NCBI RefSeq assembly: GCF_030265065.1
Contig: NC_080408.1
Location: forward strand, 22,855,480 to 22,919,479
Length of the DNA stretch: 64,000 bases
DNA from: Corythoichthys intestinalis
Lineage: Eukaryota
Direction of reading: 5' to 3'
Within the stretch, counting starts at the first letter, position 1; the number at the start of each line of letters is the position of its first letter. Shown piece after piece: positions 10,844-62,794 of this stretch. Below the pieces are notes generated by a model. That model had not been told where the DNA came from. It did no database searches and saw only the letters and a list, made by a program, of their open reading frames with translations. Position numbers and translations under genes: made by a program.

Positions 10844-12032
10844 TACACTCACCGGCCACTTTATTAGGTACACCATGCTAGTAACTGGTTGGACCCCCTT
10901 TTGCCTTCATAACTGTCTCAATTCTTCGTGGCATACTGACATGATGGCATCACACAATTGGTGCAGATTTGTCAGCTGCACATCCATGATGCGAATCTCC
11001 CGTTCCACCACATCCCAAAGATGCTCTATTGGATTGAGATCTGGTGACTGTGGAGGCCATTTGAGTACAGTGAACTCATTGTCATGTTCAAGAAACCAGT
11101 CTGAGATGATTCCAGCTTTATGACATGGCGCATTATCCTGCTGAAAGTTCAGAGATTCAAATCAGAAGTTGGGTACATTGTGGTCATAAAGGGATGGACT
11201 TGGTCAGCAACAATACTCAGGTAGGCTGTGGCGTTCCAACGATGCTCAATTGGTACCAAGGGGCCCAAAGAGTGCCAAGAAAATATTCCCCACACCATTA
11301 CACCACCACCACCAGCCTGAACCGTTGATACAAGGCAGGATAGATCCATGCTTTCATGTTGTTGACGCCAAATTCTGACCATACCATCCGAATGTCGCAG
11401 CAGAAATCGACTCATCAGACCAGGCAACGTTTTTCCAATGTTGTATTGTCCAATTTCGATGAGCTTGTGCAAATTGTAGCCTCAGTTTCCTGTTCTTAGC
11501 TGAAAGGAGTGGCACCCGGCGTGGTCGTCTGCTGTTGTAGTCCATCTGCCTCAAAGTTTGACGTATTGTGCGTTCAGAGATGCTCTTCTGCCTACCTTGG
11601 TTGTAACGGGTGGTTATTTGAAACACTGTTGCCTTTCTATCAGCTCGAACCAGTCTGGCCATTCTCTTCTGACCTCTGGCATCAACAAGGCATATCCGCC
11701 CACAGAACTGCCGCTCACTGGATATTTTTTCTTTTTTGGACCATTCTCTGTAAACTCTAGAGATGGTTGTGCGTGAAATCCCAGTAGATCAGCAGTTTCT
11801 GTAATACTCAGACCAGCCCTTCTGGCAACAACAACCATGCCACGTTCAAAGTCACTCAAATCACCTTTCTTTCCCATACTAATGATGCTTGGTTTGAACT
11901 GCAGGAGATTGTCTTAAACCATGTCTACATGCCTAAATGCACTGAGTTGCCACCATGTGATTGGCTGATTAGAAATTAAGTGTTAACGAGCAGTTGGACA
12001 GGTCTACCTAATAAAGTGGCCGGTGAGTGTAT
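10844..12032 (-). mobile_element. Decayed Tc1-family transposon (terminal inverted repeat TACACTCACCGGCCACTTTATTAGGTACACC)
   Basis: Inverted termini at 10844-10875 and 12000-12032. Frameshifted transposase pieces on the - strand at 11149-11877 (MGKKGDLSDFERGMVV.., ..WSDES.., ..GGGGVMVWG..). Confidence 0.75.
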
Positions 12033-23736: not shown

Positions 23737-25363
23737 CAGTGCCTTGCAAAAGTATTCGGCCCCCTTGAACCTTGCAACCTTTCGCCAAATTTCAGGCTTC
23801 AAACATAAAGATATAAAATTTTAATTTTTTGTCAAGAATCAACAAGTGGGACACAATCGTGAAGTGGAACAAAATTTATTGGATAATTTAAACTTTTTTA
23901 ACAAATAAAAAACTGAAAAGTGGGGCGTGCAATATTATTCGGCCCCCTTGCGTTAATACTTTGTAGCGCCACCTTTTGCTCCAATTACAGCTGCAAGTCG
24001 CTTGGGGTATGTTTCTATCAGTTTTGCACATCGAGAGACTGACATTCTTGCCCATTCTCCCTAGCAAAACAGCTCGAGCTCAGTGAGGTTGGATGGAGAG
24101 TGTTTGTGAACAGCAGTCTTCAGCTCTTTCCACAGATTCTCGATTGGATTCAGGTCTGGACTTTGACTTGGCCATTCTAACACCTGGATACGTTTATTTT
24201 TGAACCATTCCACTGTAGATTTGGCTTTATGTTTTGGATCATTGTCCTGTTGGAAGATAAATCTCCGTCCCAGTCTCAGGTCTTGTGCAGATACCAACAG
24301 GTTTTCTTCCAGAATGTTCCTGTATTTGGCTGCATCCATCTTCCCGTCAACTTTAACCATCTTCCCTGTCCCTGCTGAAGAAAAGCAGGCCCAAACCATG
24401 ATGCTGCCACCACCATGTTTGACAGTGGGGATGGTGTGTTCAGGGTGATGAGCTGTGTTGCTTTTACGCCAAACATATCGTTTTGCATTGTGGCCAGAAA
24501 GTTCAATTTTGGTTTCATCTGACCAGAGCACCTTCTTCCACATGTTTGGTGTGTCTCCCAGGTGGCTTGTGGCAAACTTTATACGAGACTTTTTATGGAT
24601 ATCTTTGAGAAATGGTTTTCTTCTCGCCACTCTTCCATAAAGGCCAGATTTGTGCAGTGTACGACTGATTGTTGTCCTATGGACAGACTCTCCCACCTCA
24701 GCTGTAGATCTCTGCAGTTCATCCAGAGTGATCATGGGCCTCTTGGATGCATCTCTGATCAGTTTTCTCCTTGTTTGAGAAGAAAGTTTGGAAGGACGGC
24801 CGGGTCTTGGTAGATTTGCAGTGGTCTGATGCTCCTTCCATTTCAATATGATGGCTTGCACAGTGCTCCTTGAGATGTTTAAAGCTTGGGAAATCTTTTT
24901 GTATCCAAATCCGGCTTTAAACTTCTCCACAACAGTATCTCGGACCTGCCTGGTGTGTTCCTTGGTTTTCATAATGCTCTCTGCACTTTAAACAGAACCC
25001 TGAGACTATCACAGAGCAGGTGCATTTATACGGAGACTTGATTACACACAGGTGGATTCTATTTATCATCATCGGTCATTTAGGACAACATTGGATCATT
25101 CAGAGATCCTCACTGAACTTCTGGAGTGAGTTTGCTGCACTGAAAGTAAAGGGGCCGAATAATATTGCACGCCCCACTTTTCAGTTTTTTATTTGTTAAA
25201 AAAGTTTAAATTATCCAATAAATGTTGTTCCACTTCACGATTGTGTCCCACTTGTTGTTGATTCTTGACAAAAAAATTAAATTTCATATCTTTATGTTTG
25301 AAGCCTGAAATGTGGAGAAAGGTTGCAAGATTCAAGGGGGCCGAATACTTTTGCAAGGCACTG
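23737..25363 (-). mobile_element. Tc1-family transposon, 1627 bp, terminal inverted repeat CAGTGCCTTGCAAAAGTATTCGGCCCCCTTGAACC... (Passport / Frog Prince-like termini), flanked by TA
   Basis: About 100-bp inverted repeats at both ends. TA at 23735-36 and 25364-65. The unoccupied site gcgtTAatttcgtcaa is preserved at ~36145. Confidence 0.9.
23953..24972 (-). pseudogene. Tc1 transposase gene of 340 codons, intact except for one in-frame TAG at codon 304 (..ELELFC*GEWARMSVSRCAKLIETYPKRLAAVIGAKGGATKY*)
   Basis: ORF track 24061..24972 (303 aa) has the full N-terminal paired/HTH region and the DDE residues ([23 protein letters not shown]). The remaining 36 codons downstream of the TAG are still in frame. 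Confidence 0.85.
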
Positions 25364-26204
25364 TAATTGCGTCAAATATTTTAACGTGATTAACTTAAAA
25401 AAATTTATTACCACGCAATAATTTTGACAGCCCTAAATTAAAAAATAATAATAAAGCAAATGTGACACACAGAATGGCTTGCTAAAATTTGCTTAAACAT
25501 ATTGTTCTACGTAAAGGACGTCAGCAAAGGTCGGCCCTCCACATTTTTACCACACCATATCTGGCCCCCTTTGCAAAAAGTTTGGACACCCGTGATCTAC
25601 AAGGATGCCAACTTGGTGATTATAATACTATACACACACACACACAGCAGGAAAAGCAGTACATCATTTTCAATTAAACCCACCCGGAAGGCACGGACTG
25701 TAGGTTAAAAAAAAAAAATCCAAGCGTTTAACACTGGAAAGTCTGGGATTTTTTTTGTTATTCTTAGAGTCTAGCCAGAAGTTGCAAGCAATCAGTATTT
25801 CCCAGTAATTGGTCATTTACCAAACAAAACAGCTGAAGTGGGCTATTAGCTAAATGCCATTTCGCTAACTAGCTCTCCTCTTGACTTACTGACCAGAAAA
25901 GCCAAGTGGCTCTTCTTTAGACTGGCCAGTGGTTTAAGGGGACATGCTCCATTCTGAAGCTAATGCTAATGCTAGGAGTTACATTCAGCATTTGATAAAC
26001 ACTCAGCACAGACCTTTAAAGGCTAAAGCAGCATTGGCATTTGTCTCCTTTTCTAGTCTCCCAAGCCATGTTTTTAGCTTGTCATTTTGACTTAATGGTC
26101 ATGAAAAAACTATTCGTCGACAATATATTTTCCTTATAGTCATTGTTGACGAAAACCACACTGCTCGCAGTCCTTATTTTTTACCAAGTTTGTTTGGTGT
26201 ACAG

Positions 26205-26885: not shown

Positions 26886-26952
26886 GTGAGACACTATACA
26901 CATTACGTTGAATGTCTCTGCGGATGTCTTATTGGGTGCACGTGCACTGGCA

Positions 26953-27082
26953 GGGGCCCTACGTGGCAGCTGGATGCGCTGACGGCAACCTGCATTTGTG
27001 GAAATGGGAGACCACTATGGAAATCTGCAACATTCCCGCCCACGAGGGACGGGTTCATGCATGCGCCGTCCTCACTGATGCA
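26953..27082 (+). CDS. WD40 exon (GPYVAAGCADGNLHLWKWETTMEICNIPAHEGRVHACAVLTDA)
   Basis: Acceptor ctggcag|GGG, donor G|gtaagc. Confidence 0.6.
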
Positions 27083-27147
27083 GGTAAGCGTCAAATGAAT
27101 ATGATTATCGATATGTTGATTTTCACGTTTTCATCTTTTCTTTCTAG

Positions 27148-27227
27148 ACAAAGAAACAAACCCCGAGGATCTCACTGTACTCACTGCTGCCCAAGATGGA
27201 AAGGTTCGGTTCTGGAAACCATTACAG
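27148..27227 (+). CDS. WD40 exon (DKETNPEDLTVLTAAQDGKVRFWKPLQ)
   Basis: Acceptor tttctag|AC, donor CAG|gttggt. Confidence 0.6.
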
Positions 27228-27615
27228 GTTGGTCCATTTTTTTAAATTTAATTCAATAATAGTTTAACCTAAGTTCATGTTTGAACTTGCTAAAATACTG
27301 TTCAAACTGTCATGTCATCTATCATGCAGAGGATTCTGCTAACCTGTTTTTTGGGTTCAGCCACTTGACATTCTCAACATTCACAAGGGTATTTTTGACG
27401 ACATGGCAGCTATTGAGATTGATGATCATTTTTTTTGTGTGTAAATCTAATGCCACACATGCATGATCAACAAGCAAACCAGGTTTTGATTACCATGTAG
27501 AATGTATTCTTTTGAAAAAAACATTCTAATTTACAAGCTGCTCTCTGAATATGATGCATTTGCGTGACATTAACACAACAAGAAAAACATTTTTTTTCCT
27601 TTGGTTGTTTCACAG

Positions 27616-45766: not shown

Positions 45767-46743
45767 TAGGGTTGTTCCGATCATGTTTTTTTGCTCCTGA
45801 TCCGATCCCGATCGTTTTAGTTTGAGTATCTGCCGATCCCGATATTTCCCGATCCGATTGCTTTTTTTTTGCTCCCGATTCAATTCCAATCAATCCCGAT
45901 AATTTTTCCCTTTCATATACATTTTGGCAATGCATTAAGAAAAAAATGAATAAAACTCGGACGAATACATTCAACATACAGTACATAAGTACTGTATTTG
46001 TTTATTATGACAATAAATCCTCAAGATGGCATTTACATTATTAACATTCTTTCTGTGAGAGGGATCCACAGATTGAAAGACTTGTGACTTTGTATATTGT
46101 GACTAAATATTGCCATCTAGTGTATTTGTTGAGCTTTCAGTAAATGATACTGTAGCCATGCCCAAATGCATTATGGGAAGTGGAACCATGACTGTGCGTA
46201 GTGCTACCAATTGATATATCTTCTCTGCATTGGGAAATAACATAAGTTGTTAAGAAAAAGATCAATTGCTACCCTGATTCCCCAAATTGCTTCCCATGAT
46301 ATTTCTAATCGTAGGGAGAGTGATTGTAAGGCTTTAGCCAATTAAAAAAAGGCTCCAAAGGCTGCCAAAATTCACTTTATTCATTTTACGATGCCTTTTA
46401 TCTCTCTATATAGGTAAAACGGCGCCATTACAGATTGAGCGCGACGATGTGTGAGTGGGTCGTGCAGTGCATGCATTAATTGCGGTAAATATTTTAACGT
46501 GATACATTTTTTTAAAAAATTAATTACCGCTGTTATCGGGATAAATTTGATAACCCTACCCTAAGCCTAAACTAAAGACTCTGGATGAGTGTAACATATT
46601 ATGTCTGTAATGTTAAATGCAATTAGAAAACAATTTAATTAAAAAAAAAATATATATTTAAAAAAGGCATGGCCGATATTTTTGGGGGGATTCCGATACT
46701 TTGGAAATGACGTGATCGGACCCGATCGATCGGGACATCTCTA
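45767..46743. mobile_element. Non-autonomous element (terminal inverted repeat CTAGGGTTGTTCCGATCATG ... GATCGATCGGGACATCTCTAG), copy 1
   Basis: About 90% identical to 47958-48972. Internal (ccgatc)-rich subterminal repeats. A hAT-like TAGGGCTATCAAATTTATC end is embedded at 46480-46560. Confidence 0.6.
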
Positions 46744-47957: not shown

Positions 47958-48972
47958 GGTAGGGTTGTTCCGATCATGTTTTTTTGCTCCCGATCCGATC
48001 CCGATGGTTTTAGTTTGAGTATCTGCCGGTCCCGATATTTCCCGATCCGATTGCTTTTTTTTTTTTTTGCTCCCGATTCAATTCCAATCATTCCCGATAA
48101 TTTTTTCTGATCATATTCATTTTGGCAATGCATTAAGAAAAAAATGAATAAAACTCGGACGAATATATACATTCAACATACAGTACATAAAGTAAGTAGT
48201 GTATTTGTTTATTATGACAATAAATCCTCAAGATGGCATTTACATTATTAACATTCTTTCTGTGAGAGGGATCCACGGATGGAAAGACTTGTAAATCTCA
48301 AAGGATAAATGTGACTTTGTAGATTGTGACTAAATATTGCCATCTAGTGTATTTGTTGAGCTTTCAGTAAATGATACTGTAGCCATTTAACTGTTCTGCC
48401 CAAATGCATGATGGGAAGTGCAACCATGACTTGCCTAGTGGCACCAATTGATATATCTTCTCTGCGTTGAGAAATAACATAGGGTGTTAAGAAAAAGATC
48501 AACTGCTACCTTTCTTCCCCAAACTGCTTCCCACGATATTTCTAATTGTTTAGAGAGGGGTTGTAACGCCTTAGCCATTTAAAACAAGGCTCCAAAGACT
48601 GCCAAATTTCACTCTACTCATTTTACGCTGCCTTTTAGCTCTATATATAGGTAAAACGGCGCCATTATAGATTGAAAGCAACAATGCATGAGTGGGTCGT
48701 GCAGCGCATGCATTAATTGCGTTATATATTTTAACGTGATTAATTTTTAAAAAATTAATTACCGCCGTTAACGCGATAAATTTGATAGCCCTACTTTAAG
48801 CCAAAACTAAAGACTAGATGAGTGTAAGACATTTTGTCTGTAACATTAAATACAATTAGAAAACGATTTAATTAAAAAATATATATATATTCAAAAAAGG
48901 CATGTCCGATATTTTTTTGCCGATTCCGATACTTTGAAAATGACGTGATCGGACCCGATCGACCGGGACATC
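47958..48972. mobile_element. Non-autonomous element of the same family, copy 2
   Basis: Same terminal inverted repeats. The flanking sequence differs from copy 1, so this is an independent insertion. Confidence 0.6.
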
Positions 48973-50649: not shown

Positions 50650-51535
50650 CCAGAACGAAAAAACACCACGTTTTACCCGGGTCTATGACAAGCATGATGC
50701 TTACTCTCGGGACGCAATGCGGTCCGTTTCTCATTGCGTCCCGAAGACCGCGCTGTGTATTAGTTCCGCTTTACTTGACATATTTCAATAATCGGAATTT
50801 GGATGTTTGTGAATCGTTCTCGAATCTTCCACGGCCGAATCGCTCAAGGATGTAATGACGGCTGGCCACGCTGTACCGTGGTTCTAAGTGTTGGATGGTG
50901 CGTCTTTACTCACGAGAGATAATGGCTCGTCATCCAGAATGAATTCTTCGGCAATGACTCTTGTTATTCCCTGGGCTTTGGGACTGTCGAGTGCCAGTTT
51001 GTCACGCATAGCAAAAGTTTCCGCCAGTATTAGTTGCGTAGGACCTTTCTTTTTGTCTTCGGTTTTCTTAACATGATACTCGTTATATTGTTTGTGGTGG
51101 TATTTCCCTAAATGCTTGATTAGGTTGGTTGTATTAAAACTTCTTACAGCTTTACCACCATGCTTGACTTTATTGTGGCATATGTTGCACTCTGCCTCTT
51201 CATCTTTGTTGTCCTTTAAGGTGAAATGATCCCACACAGCTGACATTTTTACCGATAAAGTCTCTCGGTAAATTGGGAGACGGTAATGTAAATGTAGTGT
51301 GTTGAAGGTGTGCCGTAAAATGCGGACCGGATTTTAGGGAAACCGAAGCAAAAACTGGAATGGATTATGTAAATCGGTGCGCTGGAAAACCTGGACAGGA
51401 CTTTTTTTTTTAAAAACTGGATTGGAAGTCTGGATCGGAATTTTTCCGTGTTGGCCGATCCGATACCGATGCGCATTTTTTTGCCCATATCGGCGTCCGA
51501 TCTGATCCAAATATCGGCTCGGGACATCTCTATTC
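50650..51535 (-). mobile_element. Truncated hAT-like element carrying the BED-finger ORF (terminus 51505-51535 related to the 45767 / 47958 family)
   Basis: The terminus ..atcggctcgggacatctctattc matches the ..GGGACATCTCTAG ends. The left boundary is undefined because it merges into the 50650-50860 dispersed repeat. Confidence 0.4.
50884..51246 (-). CDS. BED-type zinc-finger ORF (hAT transposase N-terminus), 120 aa, no catalytic domain
   Basis: MSAVWDHF..AECNICHNKVKHGG..TTNLIKHLGKYHHKQY gives the BED-finger pattern SxVWxHF...C..C....T.NL..HL...H. It sits next to a hAT-like terminus GGGACATCTC at 51505-51535. Confidence 0.55.
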   Translation of the reverse strand: MSAVWDHFTLKDNKDEEAECNICHNKVKHGGKAVRSFNTTNLIKHLGKYHHKQYNEYHVKKTEDKKKGPTQLILAETFAMRDKLALDSPKAQGITRVIAEEFILDDEPLSLVSKDAPSNT

Positions 51536-55560: not shown

Positions 55561-57162
55561 CAGTGTTGAGCAGAAGTATTTGCACCCCTTGTGATTTTGC
55601 AAGTTCACCAATTTAGAAAATAGGTAGAGGTCTGAAATTTCGATCATAAATGCATTTCCACTCATGGCGACATAATCTTAAAAAAAAAAAAAAAAAAAAT
55701 CCAGAAATCACGTTTTACGATTTTTAAAAATAATTTATTTTGTGATTTACTGGGTTTCATGAGTATATGTACCCCTGAGAAAATCAGTGCTAATATTTAG
55801 TGCAGAAGGCTTTGCAATTACAGAGGTCAGATGCTTTCTTCACATGCTTTCACATATGGAAACAGGGATTTTGTTCGTTTCGTTCCCGTTCCTCCACACA
55901 AATCTTCATTTGATCTGTCAGGTTTCGGGCCTGTCGTTGAGAACCACGAAGTTTCAGCTTCATCCAAAGATTTTCTATTGGATTGAGGTCTGGAGACTGG
56001 CTAGGCCACTCCAGAACCTTGATATGCTTTTTATGCAGCCACTCCTTGGTCAGTTTTGCTGTGGATCTTTGTCATGTTGGAAGATCCAGCCACGACTCAT
56101 CTTCAAGTCTCTGAGTGTTGGAAGGAGGTTGTGGCTCAAAATCTAACGATACATTTCACAATTCATCCTCTGCTTTATACAGTACAGTCGTCCTGCCCCT
56201 TTTGCCGAAAAGCAGCCCCAAAAAATGAGGTTTCCACCTCAATACTTTACAGTGGGGATGGTGTTCTTGGGATTGTACTCATCTTTCTTTTTCCTTCACA
56301 CACATGAGTTAAGTTTGCACCATAAAGTTCTGTTTTGGTCTCATCTGACCACATGACTTTCTCACATGACCCCTCTGCATCATTCAGATGATGTCTGGCA
56401 AACTTCAGACAGGCATTCACATGTACTGGCTTCAACAGGGGAACCTTCTGAGCAATGCATGATTTTAAACCATTGCACTGTCGTGTTCTACTGACAGTAG
56501 CCTATGAAACTGTGCATCCAGCTCTCTTCAGTTCATTGACCAGCTCCTGCCGTGTAGTTCTAGGCTGAGCCCTCACTTTTCTCATCATGACTGATGCCCC
56601 ACAAGGAGAGACTTTACATGTAGCCCAGTCCGAGGTAGATTATCAGTCATGTTTAGCCCTTTCTATTTTCAACCAATTGCTGCAGCTGTTGATTTATTCT
56701 CACCAAGCTGCTTTCCAATTGTCCCATAGCATTTTCCAGCTTTGTGGAGCTCGATAATTTTTTTCTCTGCTGTCTTTCGAAAGCTCTCTGGTCTTGCCCA
56801 TGGTAGCAGTTGGATTATGTCTGACTGTGGGGTGCACAGGTAACAAATGTGAGCTCAAACAGGTGGTGGGTGGGTGTAATGGTGTAAAGGTGGACTTTTT
56901 TTTTTTTTTTTTAAGGTAGACTGACAACTCTTTGAGTGTCATAATTATTGCTGATTCCCATGGATACAAATGCTTATGAACCCCAGTAAATTACAAATAA
57001 CTAATTTCTAAAAATCATACAATGCGAGTTCTGAATTTTTGTTAGATTACATCTCAATGAGTGAAAATGCATCTATAATTGAAATATTAGACCTCTGCCT
57101 ATTTTCTAAGTGGGTGAACTTGCAAAATCAAAAGGGGTGAAAATACTTATATACACACAGTA
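55561..57162 (-). mobile_element. Decayed Tc1-family transposon (TA|CAGTGTTGAGCAGAAGTATTTGCACCCC terminus)
   Basis: About 90-bp inverted repeats at 55561-55650 and 57045-57162. Transposase fragments on the - strand: MGKTRELSKDSREK.. (56700-56969) and ..WSDETKTELYG.. (56247-56435). Confidence 0.75.
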
Positions 57163-61418: not shown

Positions 61419-62794
61419 AATGCATTTTTTTTTTCTGTTAAAAGTTTTAAAATTGAATTTAAATCACTTTTTATACTCTTATATAAATGGAACTGTGTGT
61501 GCATGTTCATTCCATATAGATTCTGAAACGGCCAGTTGGATTTTAACAAAACTTTACACAGTTGTACTTTGTGTCTGGGAGTATTCTTAGATATGTTTGA
61601 TCGCTGTAGGCCTCGATTTAGTGCGGAAACTAAATTTGAAACTCAAAAAAATTACCTGATTTCGAGGTTTGGTATGTGTTGATTTAACAAACCTTAGCTT
61701 CAACAACACTGTACAAGTAGTATACACGGGCTATACTGCTAGTTTCTTCTAATTTGAATTGTATTTATTCTAATAAAAGGCTTATTTATTGTAGTTTTTG
61801 TAAATGTAGTTTTCATTTCATCCTAACTAAAGTTTTTCTATTAGATTAGATTTTGATGAAAATGTTTTCTGTAGCGACGCAGTGGTAGAGTGGTTAGTAG
61901 TATGTTTGCCTCAAAGTTCTGAGATTGTTGGTCAATCCCAGCTCTGGCCTCCCTGTGTGGAGGTTGCATGTTCTCCCGTATCTGCGTGGATTTTCTCCAG
62001 GTACTCCAGCTTCCTCCCACATCCCAAAAACATGCATAGTAGGCTGATTGAAGACTCCAAATTGCCCGTAGGTTTGAGTGTGCGCGAGGATGGTCGTCTG
62101 TTTTTATGTGCCCTGCCACTGGCTGGCAAGCAGTTCAGGGTGTACTAGGGGTGTGACAAAATATCGAAATGGTGATATATCGTGATACTTTGTATCCAAA
62201 AAGAATCGAGATATTGTTTTAAAAAGGTGTCAATGTTTCCACCACAGGTTATCAATAGGGTTGGGATCTGGGCTATTTGTAGGCCATGACATGACTGGAT
62301 AAGACTTTCTCCAAGGACTGCTTTAACGGTTTTAGCTCTGTGGCATGATGCATTGTCATCTTGGAAAATGACATATTTTCATTTGAAGGGATAAGAAATC
62401 TAAAATGTCTAAAATTTCAATGTAAACGTTTGAAATTTGTTGAAGATTTAACCACAGCCATCTCCCCAGTGCCTTTGCCTGACATGCAGCCCTACATCAT
62501 CAAGTACTGAGGGAATTTTGATGTCTTCTTCAGGCAACCATCTTAGTAAATCTCACTGGAATGGCACCAAACAAAAGTTTCAGCATCATCACCTTGTCCA
62601 ATGCAGATTCTTGGCTCTTGACACCTTGTCCAATGCAGATTCTTGACTCTTTGTCCAATGCAGATTCTTGACTCTTGACAAGGTGATGATGCTGGAACTT
62701 TTGTTTGGTGCCATTCCAGTGAGATTTACAAAGATTGTTGCCCGAAGAACCTGTTCCAGAGAGACCTTAAATGGCCCAAAATTACCTAATTGCC

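Follow-up and report, generated by a model that had tools for sequence, protein, structure and literature searches.

The window, by which we mean the whole stretch of 64,000 nucleotides of Corythoichthys intestinalis DNA that was analysed, harbors on its minus strand a complete Tc1-like element of the Glan type, whose ends were set by self-BLAST together with an inverted-repeat search. The element, its terminal inverted repeats (TIRs) and the target-site duplication are located as follows:

23737–25363, minus strand: Tc1-like (Glan-type) element, complete, 1,627 bp
25148–25363, minus strand: left TIR of the IR/DR type, with inverted-repeat pairs and a direct repeat found
25337–25355 (outer) and 25151–25169 (inner), minus strand: putative binding-site repeats of the left TIR
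23737–23949, minus strand: right TIR of the IR/DR type, from the inverted-repeat search and self-BLAST
23745–23763 (outer) and 23928–23946 (inner), minus strand: putative binding-site repeats of the right TIR
25364–25365, no strand: TA target-site duplication, 5' side, directly abutting the CAGTG terminus
23735–23736, no strand: TA target-site duplication, 3' side, matched by the single TA of an empty paralogous repeat

The element begins with CAGTG and ends with CACTG, and the first 33 nt are the same at both ends. Its arms of 213–216 bp are 93–95% identical to each other, the value of 95% referring to an alignment of 219 positions with one 3-bp gap. Each arm contains an outer and an inner repeat of about 20 nt (19–23 nt) with the core TGCAA[A/T]A[G/T]TATTCGGCCCC, spaced by 183–186 bp, and neither the outer nor the inner core differs between the two arms. 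Inverted repeats of about 200 bp that comprise outer and inner direct repeats are the hallmark of the IR/DR subgroup, and the repeats found here are predicted to be bound by the transposase. The right TIR has suffered a 3-bp deletion in comparison with the left arm and with related elements; this deletion is private, being absent from the local duplicate at 35.7 kb described below. The TA duplication typical of the Tc1 family is present on both sides of the element (23735–23736 and 25364–25365). Over 1,624 aligned positions, the window element shares 93.7% identity with L001, a related element of full length.

The element is nested in another, older interspersed repeat, which is about 390 bp long. 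Two further features of the window bear on this insertion:

35879–36232, plus strand: empty paralogous copy of the host repeat, 80% identical and uninterrupted, with one TA in place of TA-element-TA
35397–35871, plus strand: partial duplicate of the Tc1 insertion, with 313 bp of the 3' flank and the first 165 bp of the right TIR at the same TA junction

The single TA in the empty paralogous repeat confirmed where the element ends and that the TA was duplicated. The partial duplicate consists of a flank (35397–35709) and a TIR piece (35707–35871), its counterpart at the original locus being 23424–23901, and the TIR piece is the only other sequence of the same family within the window. In addition, the duplicate holds a 35-bp micro-inversion, in which 35423–35457 matches 23451–23485 at 100% in reverse orientation and the inverted segment is edged by short inverted repeats (CTTGTA...TACAAG). 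An old duplication, as suggested by the 93.7% identity of the flank at 35.4 kb, was considered and rejected, as most of the mismatches stem from this one micro-inversion; leaving aside the 35-bp segment and a 3-bp indel, only 6 substitutions in about 440 bp (about 1.4%) separate the duplicate from the original. Judged by its sequence, 35397–35871 arose by local duplication and later truncation of the Tc1 insertion and not by an independent transposition. The TIR cut off at 35871 adjoins approximately position 44 of the next host-repeat copy, a junction that suggests an ectopic recombination or deletion event. Further copies or fragments of the host repeat are found at 46464–46528, 48158–48312 and 48701–48799.

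Exon-like plus-strand ORFs flank the element at 21438–21794 and 26912–27259, the latter with weak matches to WD40 and TEP1 beta-propeller sequences. A search with both of these WD40-like ORFs returned as its only match one 86-aa Logan fragment with 74% identity. Given these flanking exon-like ORFs and their weak WD40/TEP1 matches, the element probably lies in an intron of a WD-repeat gene, in antisense orientation to it.

The coding region of the element is a transposase pseudogene, identified by translation, Pfam searches and the match to SB100X of Sleeping Beauty:

23953–24972, minus strand: transposase pseudogene, 339 codons and TAA
24061–24063, minus strand: premature stop TAG at codon 304, the sole internal stop in the translation
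residues 1–51: Pfam HTH_SB, 59.9 bits (cut-off 43)
residues 68–138: Pfam HTH_Tnp_Tc3_2, 85.2 bits (cut-off 31.5)
residues 148–299: Pfam DDE_3, above the curated cut-off
24517–24519, minus strand: catalytic D152, aligned to WSDETK of SB100X
24244–24246, minus strand: catalytic D243, aligned to DNDPKH of SB100X
24139–24141, minus strand: catalytic E278, aligned to NPIENLW of SB100X, 34 residues after D243

The product starts with MKTKEHTRQV, reads ...ELELFC*GEWA... across the premature stop and ends with AVIGAKGGATKY before the terminal TAA at 23953–23955. In the list of open reading frames, it appears as a 303-codon open frame at 24061–24972 that starts from the native ATG. The coding region is gapless against the consensus of two related lineages (A and B, see below) and, over 929 bp, against its closest relative L083, and hence contains no frameshift. 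The paired-like, bipartite N-terminal HTH region of the Tc1 family is present in the form of HTH_SB and HTH_Tnp_Tc3_2. Residues 112–339 align end to end with the catalytic domain of SB100X (PDB 5cr4; E=1e-87, 57% identity), and on the strength of these alignments D152, D243 and E278 are the DD34E triad that characterizes the Tc1 family. The 36 residues lost by the premature stop correspond to residues 195–230 of the 230-residue Sleeping Beauty catalytic-domain chain. The uninterrupted ORF expected of an autonomous transposon is broken by the TAG at codon 304, and a look-up of the exact 303-aa product gave no record in public assemblies. The earlier note on this DNA had described a near-intact Tc1 transposase on the minus strand at 23953–24972, one nonsense codon short of a full 340-aa open reading frame, with a complete N-terminal DNA-binding region, an intact DDE triad, a TAG at codon 304 as the sole interruption where FCKEEWA was expected, and 36 downstream codons still in frame. 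This description was fully borne out: the frame is free of indels, the HTH domains and the triad are in place, and close relatives read ELELFCKEEWA at the site of the stop. Chance cannot account for such a set of features.

A protein query in which codon 304 was set to K retrieved 4,604 relatives at E<=1e-50, headed by intact 339-aa proteins from Oncorhynchus (one cluster with 2,560 members) and Lepisosteus oculatus that are about 91% identical. Cichlid, piranha, Xenopus, plaice and Polypterus proteins come next with 75–81% identity. Among the DNA copies retrieved from public assemblies, two lineages were distinguished, i.e. lineage A (L002 and L004–L007), which is salmonid-like and whose copies are 98–99.9% identical among themselves, and lineage B (L001 and L003), which is gar-like. 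Lineages A and B are 94–95% identical to each other, and each of them to the window element (about 5–6% diverged). The closest relative, which was found by sampling of cluster members, is a 929-bp marine-metagenome contig (P0142/L083) with 97.85% identity and no gaps, and a second marine-metagenome contig (L084) is 95.4% identical to the window copy, so other copies of high identity do exist. L083 and L084 share a TGG-to-TAG nonsense change at codon 168, yet they are about 3% apart; together with the codon-304 stop of the window copy, this means that all three copies found of the sublineage are defective. The shared codon-168 stop is explained either by a defective copy that was amplified in trans or by orthologous loci in two related hosts.

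In the protein collection of 5.8 billion clusters, no listed representative was closer than about 91–92%, and because the clusters were built at 90% identity, closer members could hide inside the large ones; sampling of eight further protein clusters yielded no extra copy closer than about 92%. In an exact search, a subfamily-diagnostic 28-mer had no match in bacterial or archaeal genome contigs or in viral contigs.

Published PCR primers helped to assign the element to a known family. Glan-specific primers, whose reported product is 654 bp (Krasnov et al., 2005, PMC1192797), have in silico 1 and 0 mismatches to L004 of lineage A, at a distance of exactly 654 bp, and two mismatches each (2+2) to the window element, with the same 654-bp spacing. 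The ITR of the window element ends with CAGTGCCTTGCAAAAGTATTC, which agrees with the published Passport ITR oligo, CAGTGCCTTGCATAAGTATTC, at 20 of 21 bases and conforms to the terminus CAGTGCCTTGC(A/G)(A/T)AAGTATTC that can be derived from the published Passport and Glan/Barb primers; the ITR primer of Krasnov et al. has 1 mismatch in the related loci. A full-text literature search with the TIR end sequence did not find it. The Glan primers with their 654-bp spacing, together with the Passport-like ITR, mark the element as a Glan-type member of a long-known family. The Barb/SSTN/RTTN branch, which the salmonid and frog relatives had brought into consideration, was rejected because of the fit of the Glan-specific primers and of the geometry of their 654-bp amplicon. 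Clark et al. (2009, PMC2651795) group Glan with the Xenopus Eagle element in a branch of the Passport-like family, for which a discontinuous host range and suspected horizontal transfer have been published (PMC1192797, PMC2198921, PMC2651795). The finding that the three lineages are only 5–6% apart, although two of them match hosts as distant as gar and salmonids, fits this horizontal-transfer scenario.

A comparison with well-characterized systems further delimits the element. Like Sleeping Beauty (SB100X; PDB 5cr4, 2m8e, 6urs), it combines a paired-like HTH region and a DD34E RNase-H-like domain with IR/DR termini that contain four binding sites and with a TA target; both belong to one fold family and one class of mechanism, the sequence match to 5cr4 being sufficient to settle the fold. 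The match in the PAI subdomain is weaker (E about 3e-5), however, and Sleeping Beauty belongs to a different Tc1 lineage; moreover, it is a reconstructed consensus, whereas the window element is a natural, decayed copy. Eagle from Xenopus tropicalis and the other elements of the Eagle/Glan branch (cichlids, piranha, Polypterus) are Passport-like as well, encode 339-aa proteins and can be aligned gaplessly, but they share only 75–81% protein identity with the window transposase and differ by distinct residues in the DNA-binding region; we took P0022 to be Eagle from its host species and cluster size only. Plaice genomic copies (P0024), which we presume to be PPTN, have about 77–79% protein identity to the window transposase.

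Passport (PPTN) from plaice has nearly the same length as the window element (1,626 bp versus 1,627 bp) and is an IR/DR Tc1 element with the same domain layout (PMC2651795). Passport is native to a vertebrate and active (Clark et al., 2009, PMC2651795), whereas the window copy carries a stop codon and missense changes that are predicted to be damaging. The greatest resemblance is to Glan of rainbow trout (Krasnov et al., 2005, PMC1192797), which likewise measures about 1.6 kb, has IR/DR-type ITRs of about 200 bp that end with CAGT, targets TA and encodes a DD34E transposase of 339/340 aa. Oncorhynchus copies are 94% identical to the window element in DNA and about 90–91% in protein, the latter value being a proxy in which Oncorhynchus UniRef proteins (90–91%) stand for the reference copies GenBank AY880883-8. 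Judging from shared GenBank records that both papers cite, DTSsa1 of Atlantic salmon (de Boer et al., 2007, PMC2198921) and Glan are probably one element. In contrast to Glan, for which intact ORFs are annotated in trout, the window copy is dead, its nearest relatives come from marine metagenomes, and it belongs to a separate sublineage, as seen also in the two mismatches to each Glan primer.

We then considered how far the copy has decayed. Codon 304 is AAG in both outgroup lineages and encodes K in 64 of the 83 full-length relatives, and the lesion is therefore a single A-to-T change. The 20 differences between the window copy and L083 were polarised with L084 and lineages A and B, whereupon 16 turned out to be derived in the window copy (1.7% of 929 bp) and 4 in L083. 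The window-derived coding changes comprise 6 synonymous and 8 nonsynonymous ones, the latter being Y48H, R70K, A76S, L131I, F159S, I208V, the doubtful G214A, and M254V. Outside the coverage of L083, K304*, E305G and A331G are private to the window branch in comparison with both outgroup lineages. Besides, 7 of the 22 CpGs common to lineages A and B are gone from the window copy. Two of the missense changes deserve particular attention:

24496–24498, minus strand: F159S (TTT to TCT), derived in comparison with L083, L084 and lineages A and B
24058–24060, minus strand: E305G (GAA to GGA), in the codon adjoining the stop, private to the window branch in comparison with both outgroups

Phe159 lies in the conserved KIELFG strand just past the catalytic D152 and is F in 76 of the 83 full-length relatives as well as in SB100X, and Glu305 is E in 80 of the 83 and is kept in SB100X (motif QEEWAK). 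From this conservation, both F159S and E305G are predicted to be damaging. The proposal that a TAG-to-AAG reversion would give a candidate active transposase can thus be upheld in part: the reversion would reopen the frame, but in view of F159S and E305G it would probably not restore activity.

On the window branch as a whole, 13 synonymous and 14 nonsynonymous changes were counted against the two outgroup lineages, corresponding to a dN/dS of 0.31, and the nonsynonymous share of 14/27 is to be compared with 78% expected under neutrality (p=0.003). This dN/dS value implies that the window branch, which is about 3% long, was for the most part travelled as a coding, functioning transposase before the copy died, and a branch under such constraint marks the window element as a distinct sublineage and not as a heavily decayed Glan. 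The copy-specific coding changes (8 nonsynonymous, 6 synonymous) differ significantly from neither neutrality nor mild constraint (p=0.07). With a private divergence of roughly 1.5–2%, the copy is only moderately young, and its lesions go beyond the one stop codon; at generic neutral rates, such a divergence would correspond to millions of years in a vertebrate. The earlier note had based its view of a young family on the TIRs being about 95% identical to each other. The figure itself was reproduced, but the conclusion was not borne out. A cut-and-paste element receives both of its TIRs from the parent copy, and insertion does not regenerate them. Left-right TIR identity is therefore no clock of the insertion age, and dating by it follows the logic of LTR elements, which is not valid for a DNA transposon. 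In line with this, the two TIRs of L001, which has a near-full-length open ORF of 335 aa, are only 94% identical, and those of the salmonid copies 97%.

Taken together, every cis and trans component of a Tc1 IR/DR element is present, and the locus very probably holds a structurally complete but non-functional Glan-type Tc1 copy. Glan is part of the Eagle/Glan branch within the Passport-like Tc1 group, whose IR/DR, DD34E members occur in fishes and frogs. By analogy with Tc1, Sleeping Beauty and Passport, the transposase of an active relative would have bound the outer and inner repeats of each TIR of about 215 bp and paired the ends, whereupon the element would have been excised from its donor site and integrated at a TA within the older repeat of about 390 bp, duplicating the TA, at a site that probably lies in an intron. 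Since then, the copy has drifted. The AAG-to-TAG change at codon 304 cuts 36 residues off the end of the catalytic domain, about ten private missense changes have accumulated, among them F159S and E305G at near-invariant positions, and the right TIR has lost 3 bp. The loss of the 36 residues together with F159S beside the catalytic D152 most likely renders the 303-residue product inactive, and the window copy cannot itself supply transposase. With intact termini and all four binding repeats preserved, the copy could still be mobilised in trans, provided that the host contains a working transposase of the subfamily.

The alternative put forward by the earlier note, in which the element is very young and belongs to a currently active family, stands one mutation away from autonomy and has intact master copies in the same genome, appears quite unlikely to us. 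It would readily account for a coding region of 1,020 bp with a single frame-breaking lesion and zero indels, for the intact cis sites and for the dN/dS of 0.31 on the branch to the window copy, and it agrees with the 97.85%-identical copy in a marine metagenome and with the abundant intact ORFs of the trout and gar sister lineages. The private divergence of about 1.7–1.9%, however, is at odds with it, as are F159S and E305G, which are private or lineage-private changes at residues kept in 92–96% of the 83 relatives and in SB100X. Moreover, the other two copies of the subfamily share the nonsense codon 168, no listed cluster representative exceeds about 91–92% (with clusters at 90%, closer members could be hidden), and the TIR-to-TIR identity, being no valid measure of age for a DNA transposon, lends it no weight.

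Two further explanations assign a function to the remaining frame. An expressed 303-residue product might act as a dominant-negative regulator that occupies the TIR sites without catalysis, given that the 303-codon ORF retains the full HTH_SB and HTH_Tnp_Tc3_2 domains behind its native ATG and that truncated transposases acting as repressors are known for other DNA transposons. There is no sign of selection for the truncated form, however; the 36 downstream codons are in frame only because no indel has occurred, private missense changes fall inside the DNA-binding region (Y48H, R70K, A76S), and the exact 303-aa product is absent from public records, all of which makes such a role very improbable. 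That the host has co-opted the frame as a domesticated transposase gene is effectively refuted, although the ORF is long and comes from a conserved transposase family, by the intact TIRs and TA duplications still attached to it and by the premature stop, and the insertion is moreover nested in another repeat of which an empty paralogue is present. A decayed, structurally complete Glan-type copy remains our preferred reading.

The element is of an ordinary, already-described kind: reports of near-intact and intact Tc1-like copies from the Glan, Eagle and Passport group in fishes and frogs go back to 2001–2009, thousands of their ORFs are in public databases, and native active vertebrate Tc1 tools exist in Passport (PMC2651795), Thm3 (PMC4683633) and ZB (PMC7913693). 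For annotation, 23737–25363 should be masked as a Tc1 (Glan-type) element and 35397–35871 recorded as a duplicate of the same insertion, and the case teaches that DNA transposons are not to be dated by TIR-to-TIR identity. It is conceivable, albeit rather doubtful, that the window copy and the two marine-metagenome contigs represent an undescribed Glan-like subfamily whose activity in a marine ray-finned fish ended only recently. In that case, a genome-wide consensus or a rare intact copy would provide one more native and active Tc1 transposase from a vertebrate, for use in the manner of Passport or ZB, and the horizontal-transfer network already described would gain a further host through the 94–95% DNA identity that links the salmonid, gar-like and window lineages.

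The window is rich in other Tc1 remnants. Four of them, at 55793–56758 (minus strand), 43765–44455 (plus strand), 10928–11779 (minus strand) and 62242–62593 (minus strand), have 29–43% protein identity to the main element and breaks in multiple frames, and belong to unrelated, much older families. An Rfam scan of the whole window gave no hit at the gathering score. A 120-aa ORF at 50884–51246 (minus strand) contains a BED zinc finger (Pfam zf-BED, E=1.3e-9) and probably represents the N-terminal part of a hAT-type transposase remnant. Besides, a tandem array at 18023–18233 comprises 3.1 copies of a 67-bp palindromic unit (CAGGACTGTCTCAGGAAATTAGAATA... and its reverse complement) and looks like back-to-back transposon terminal repeats.
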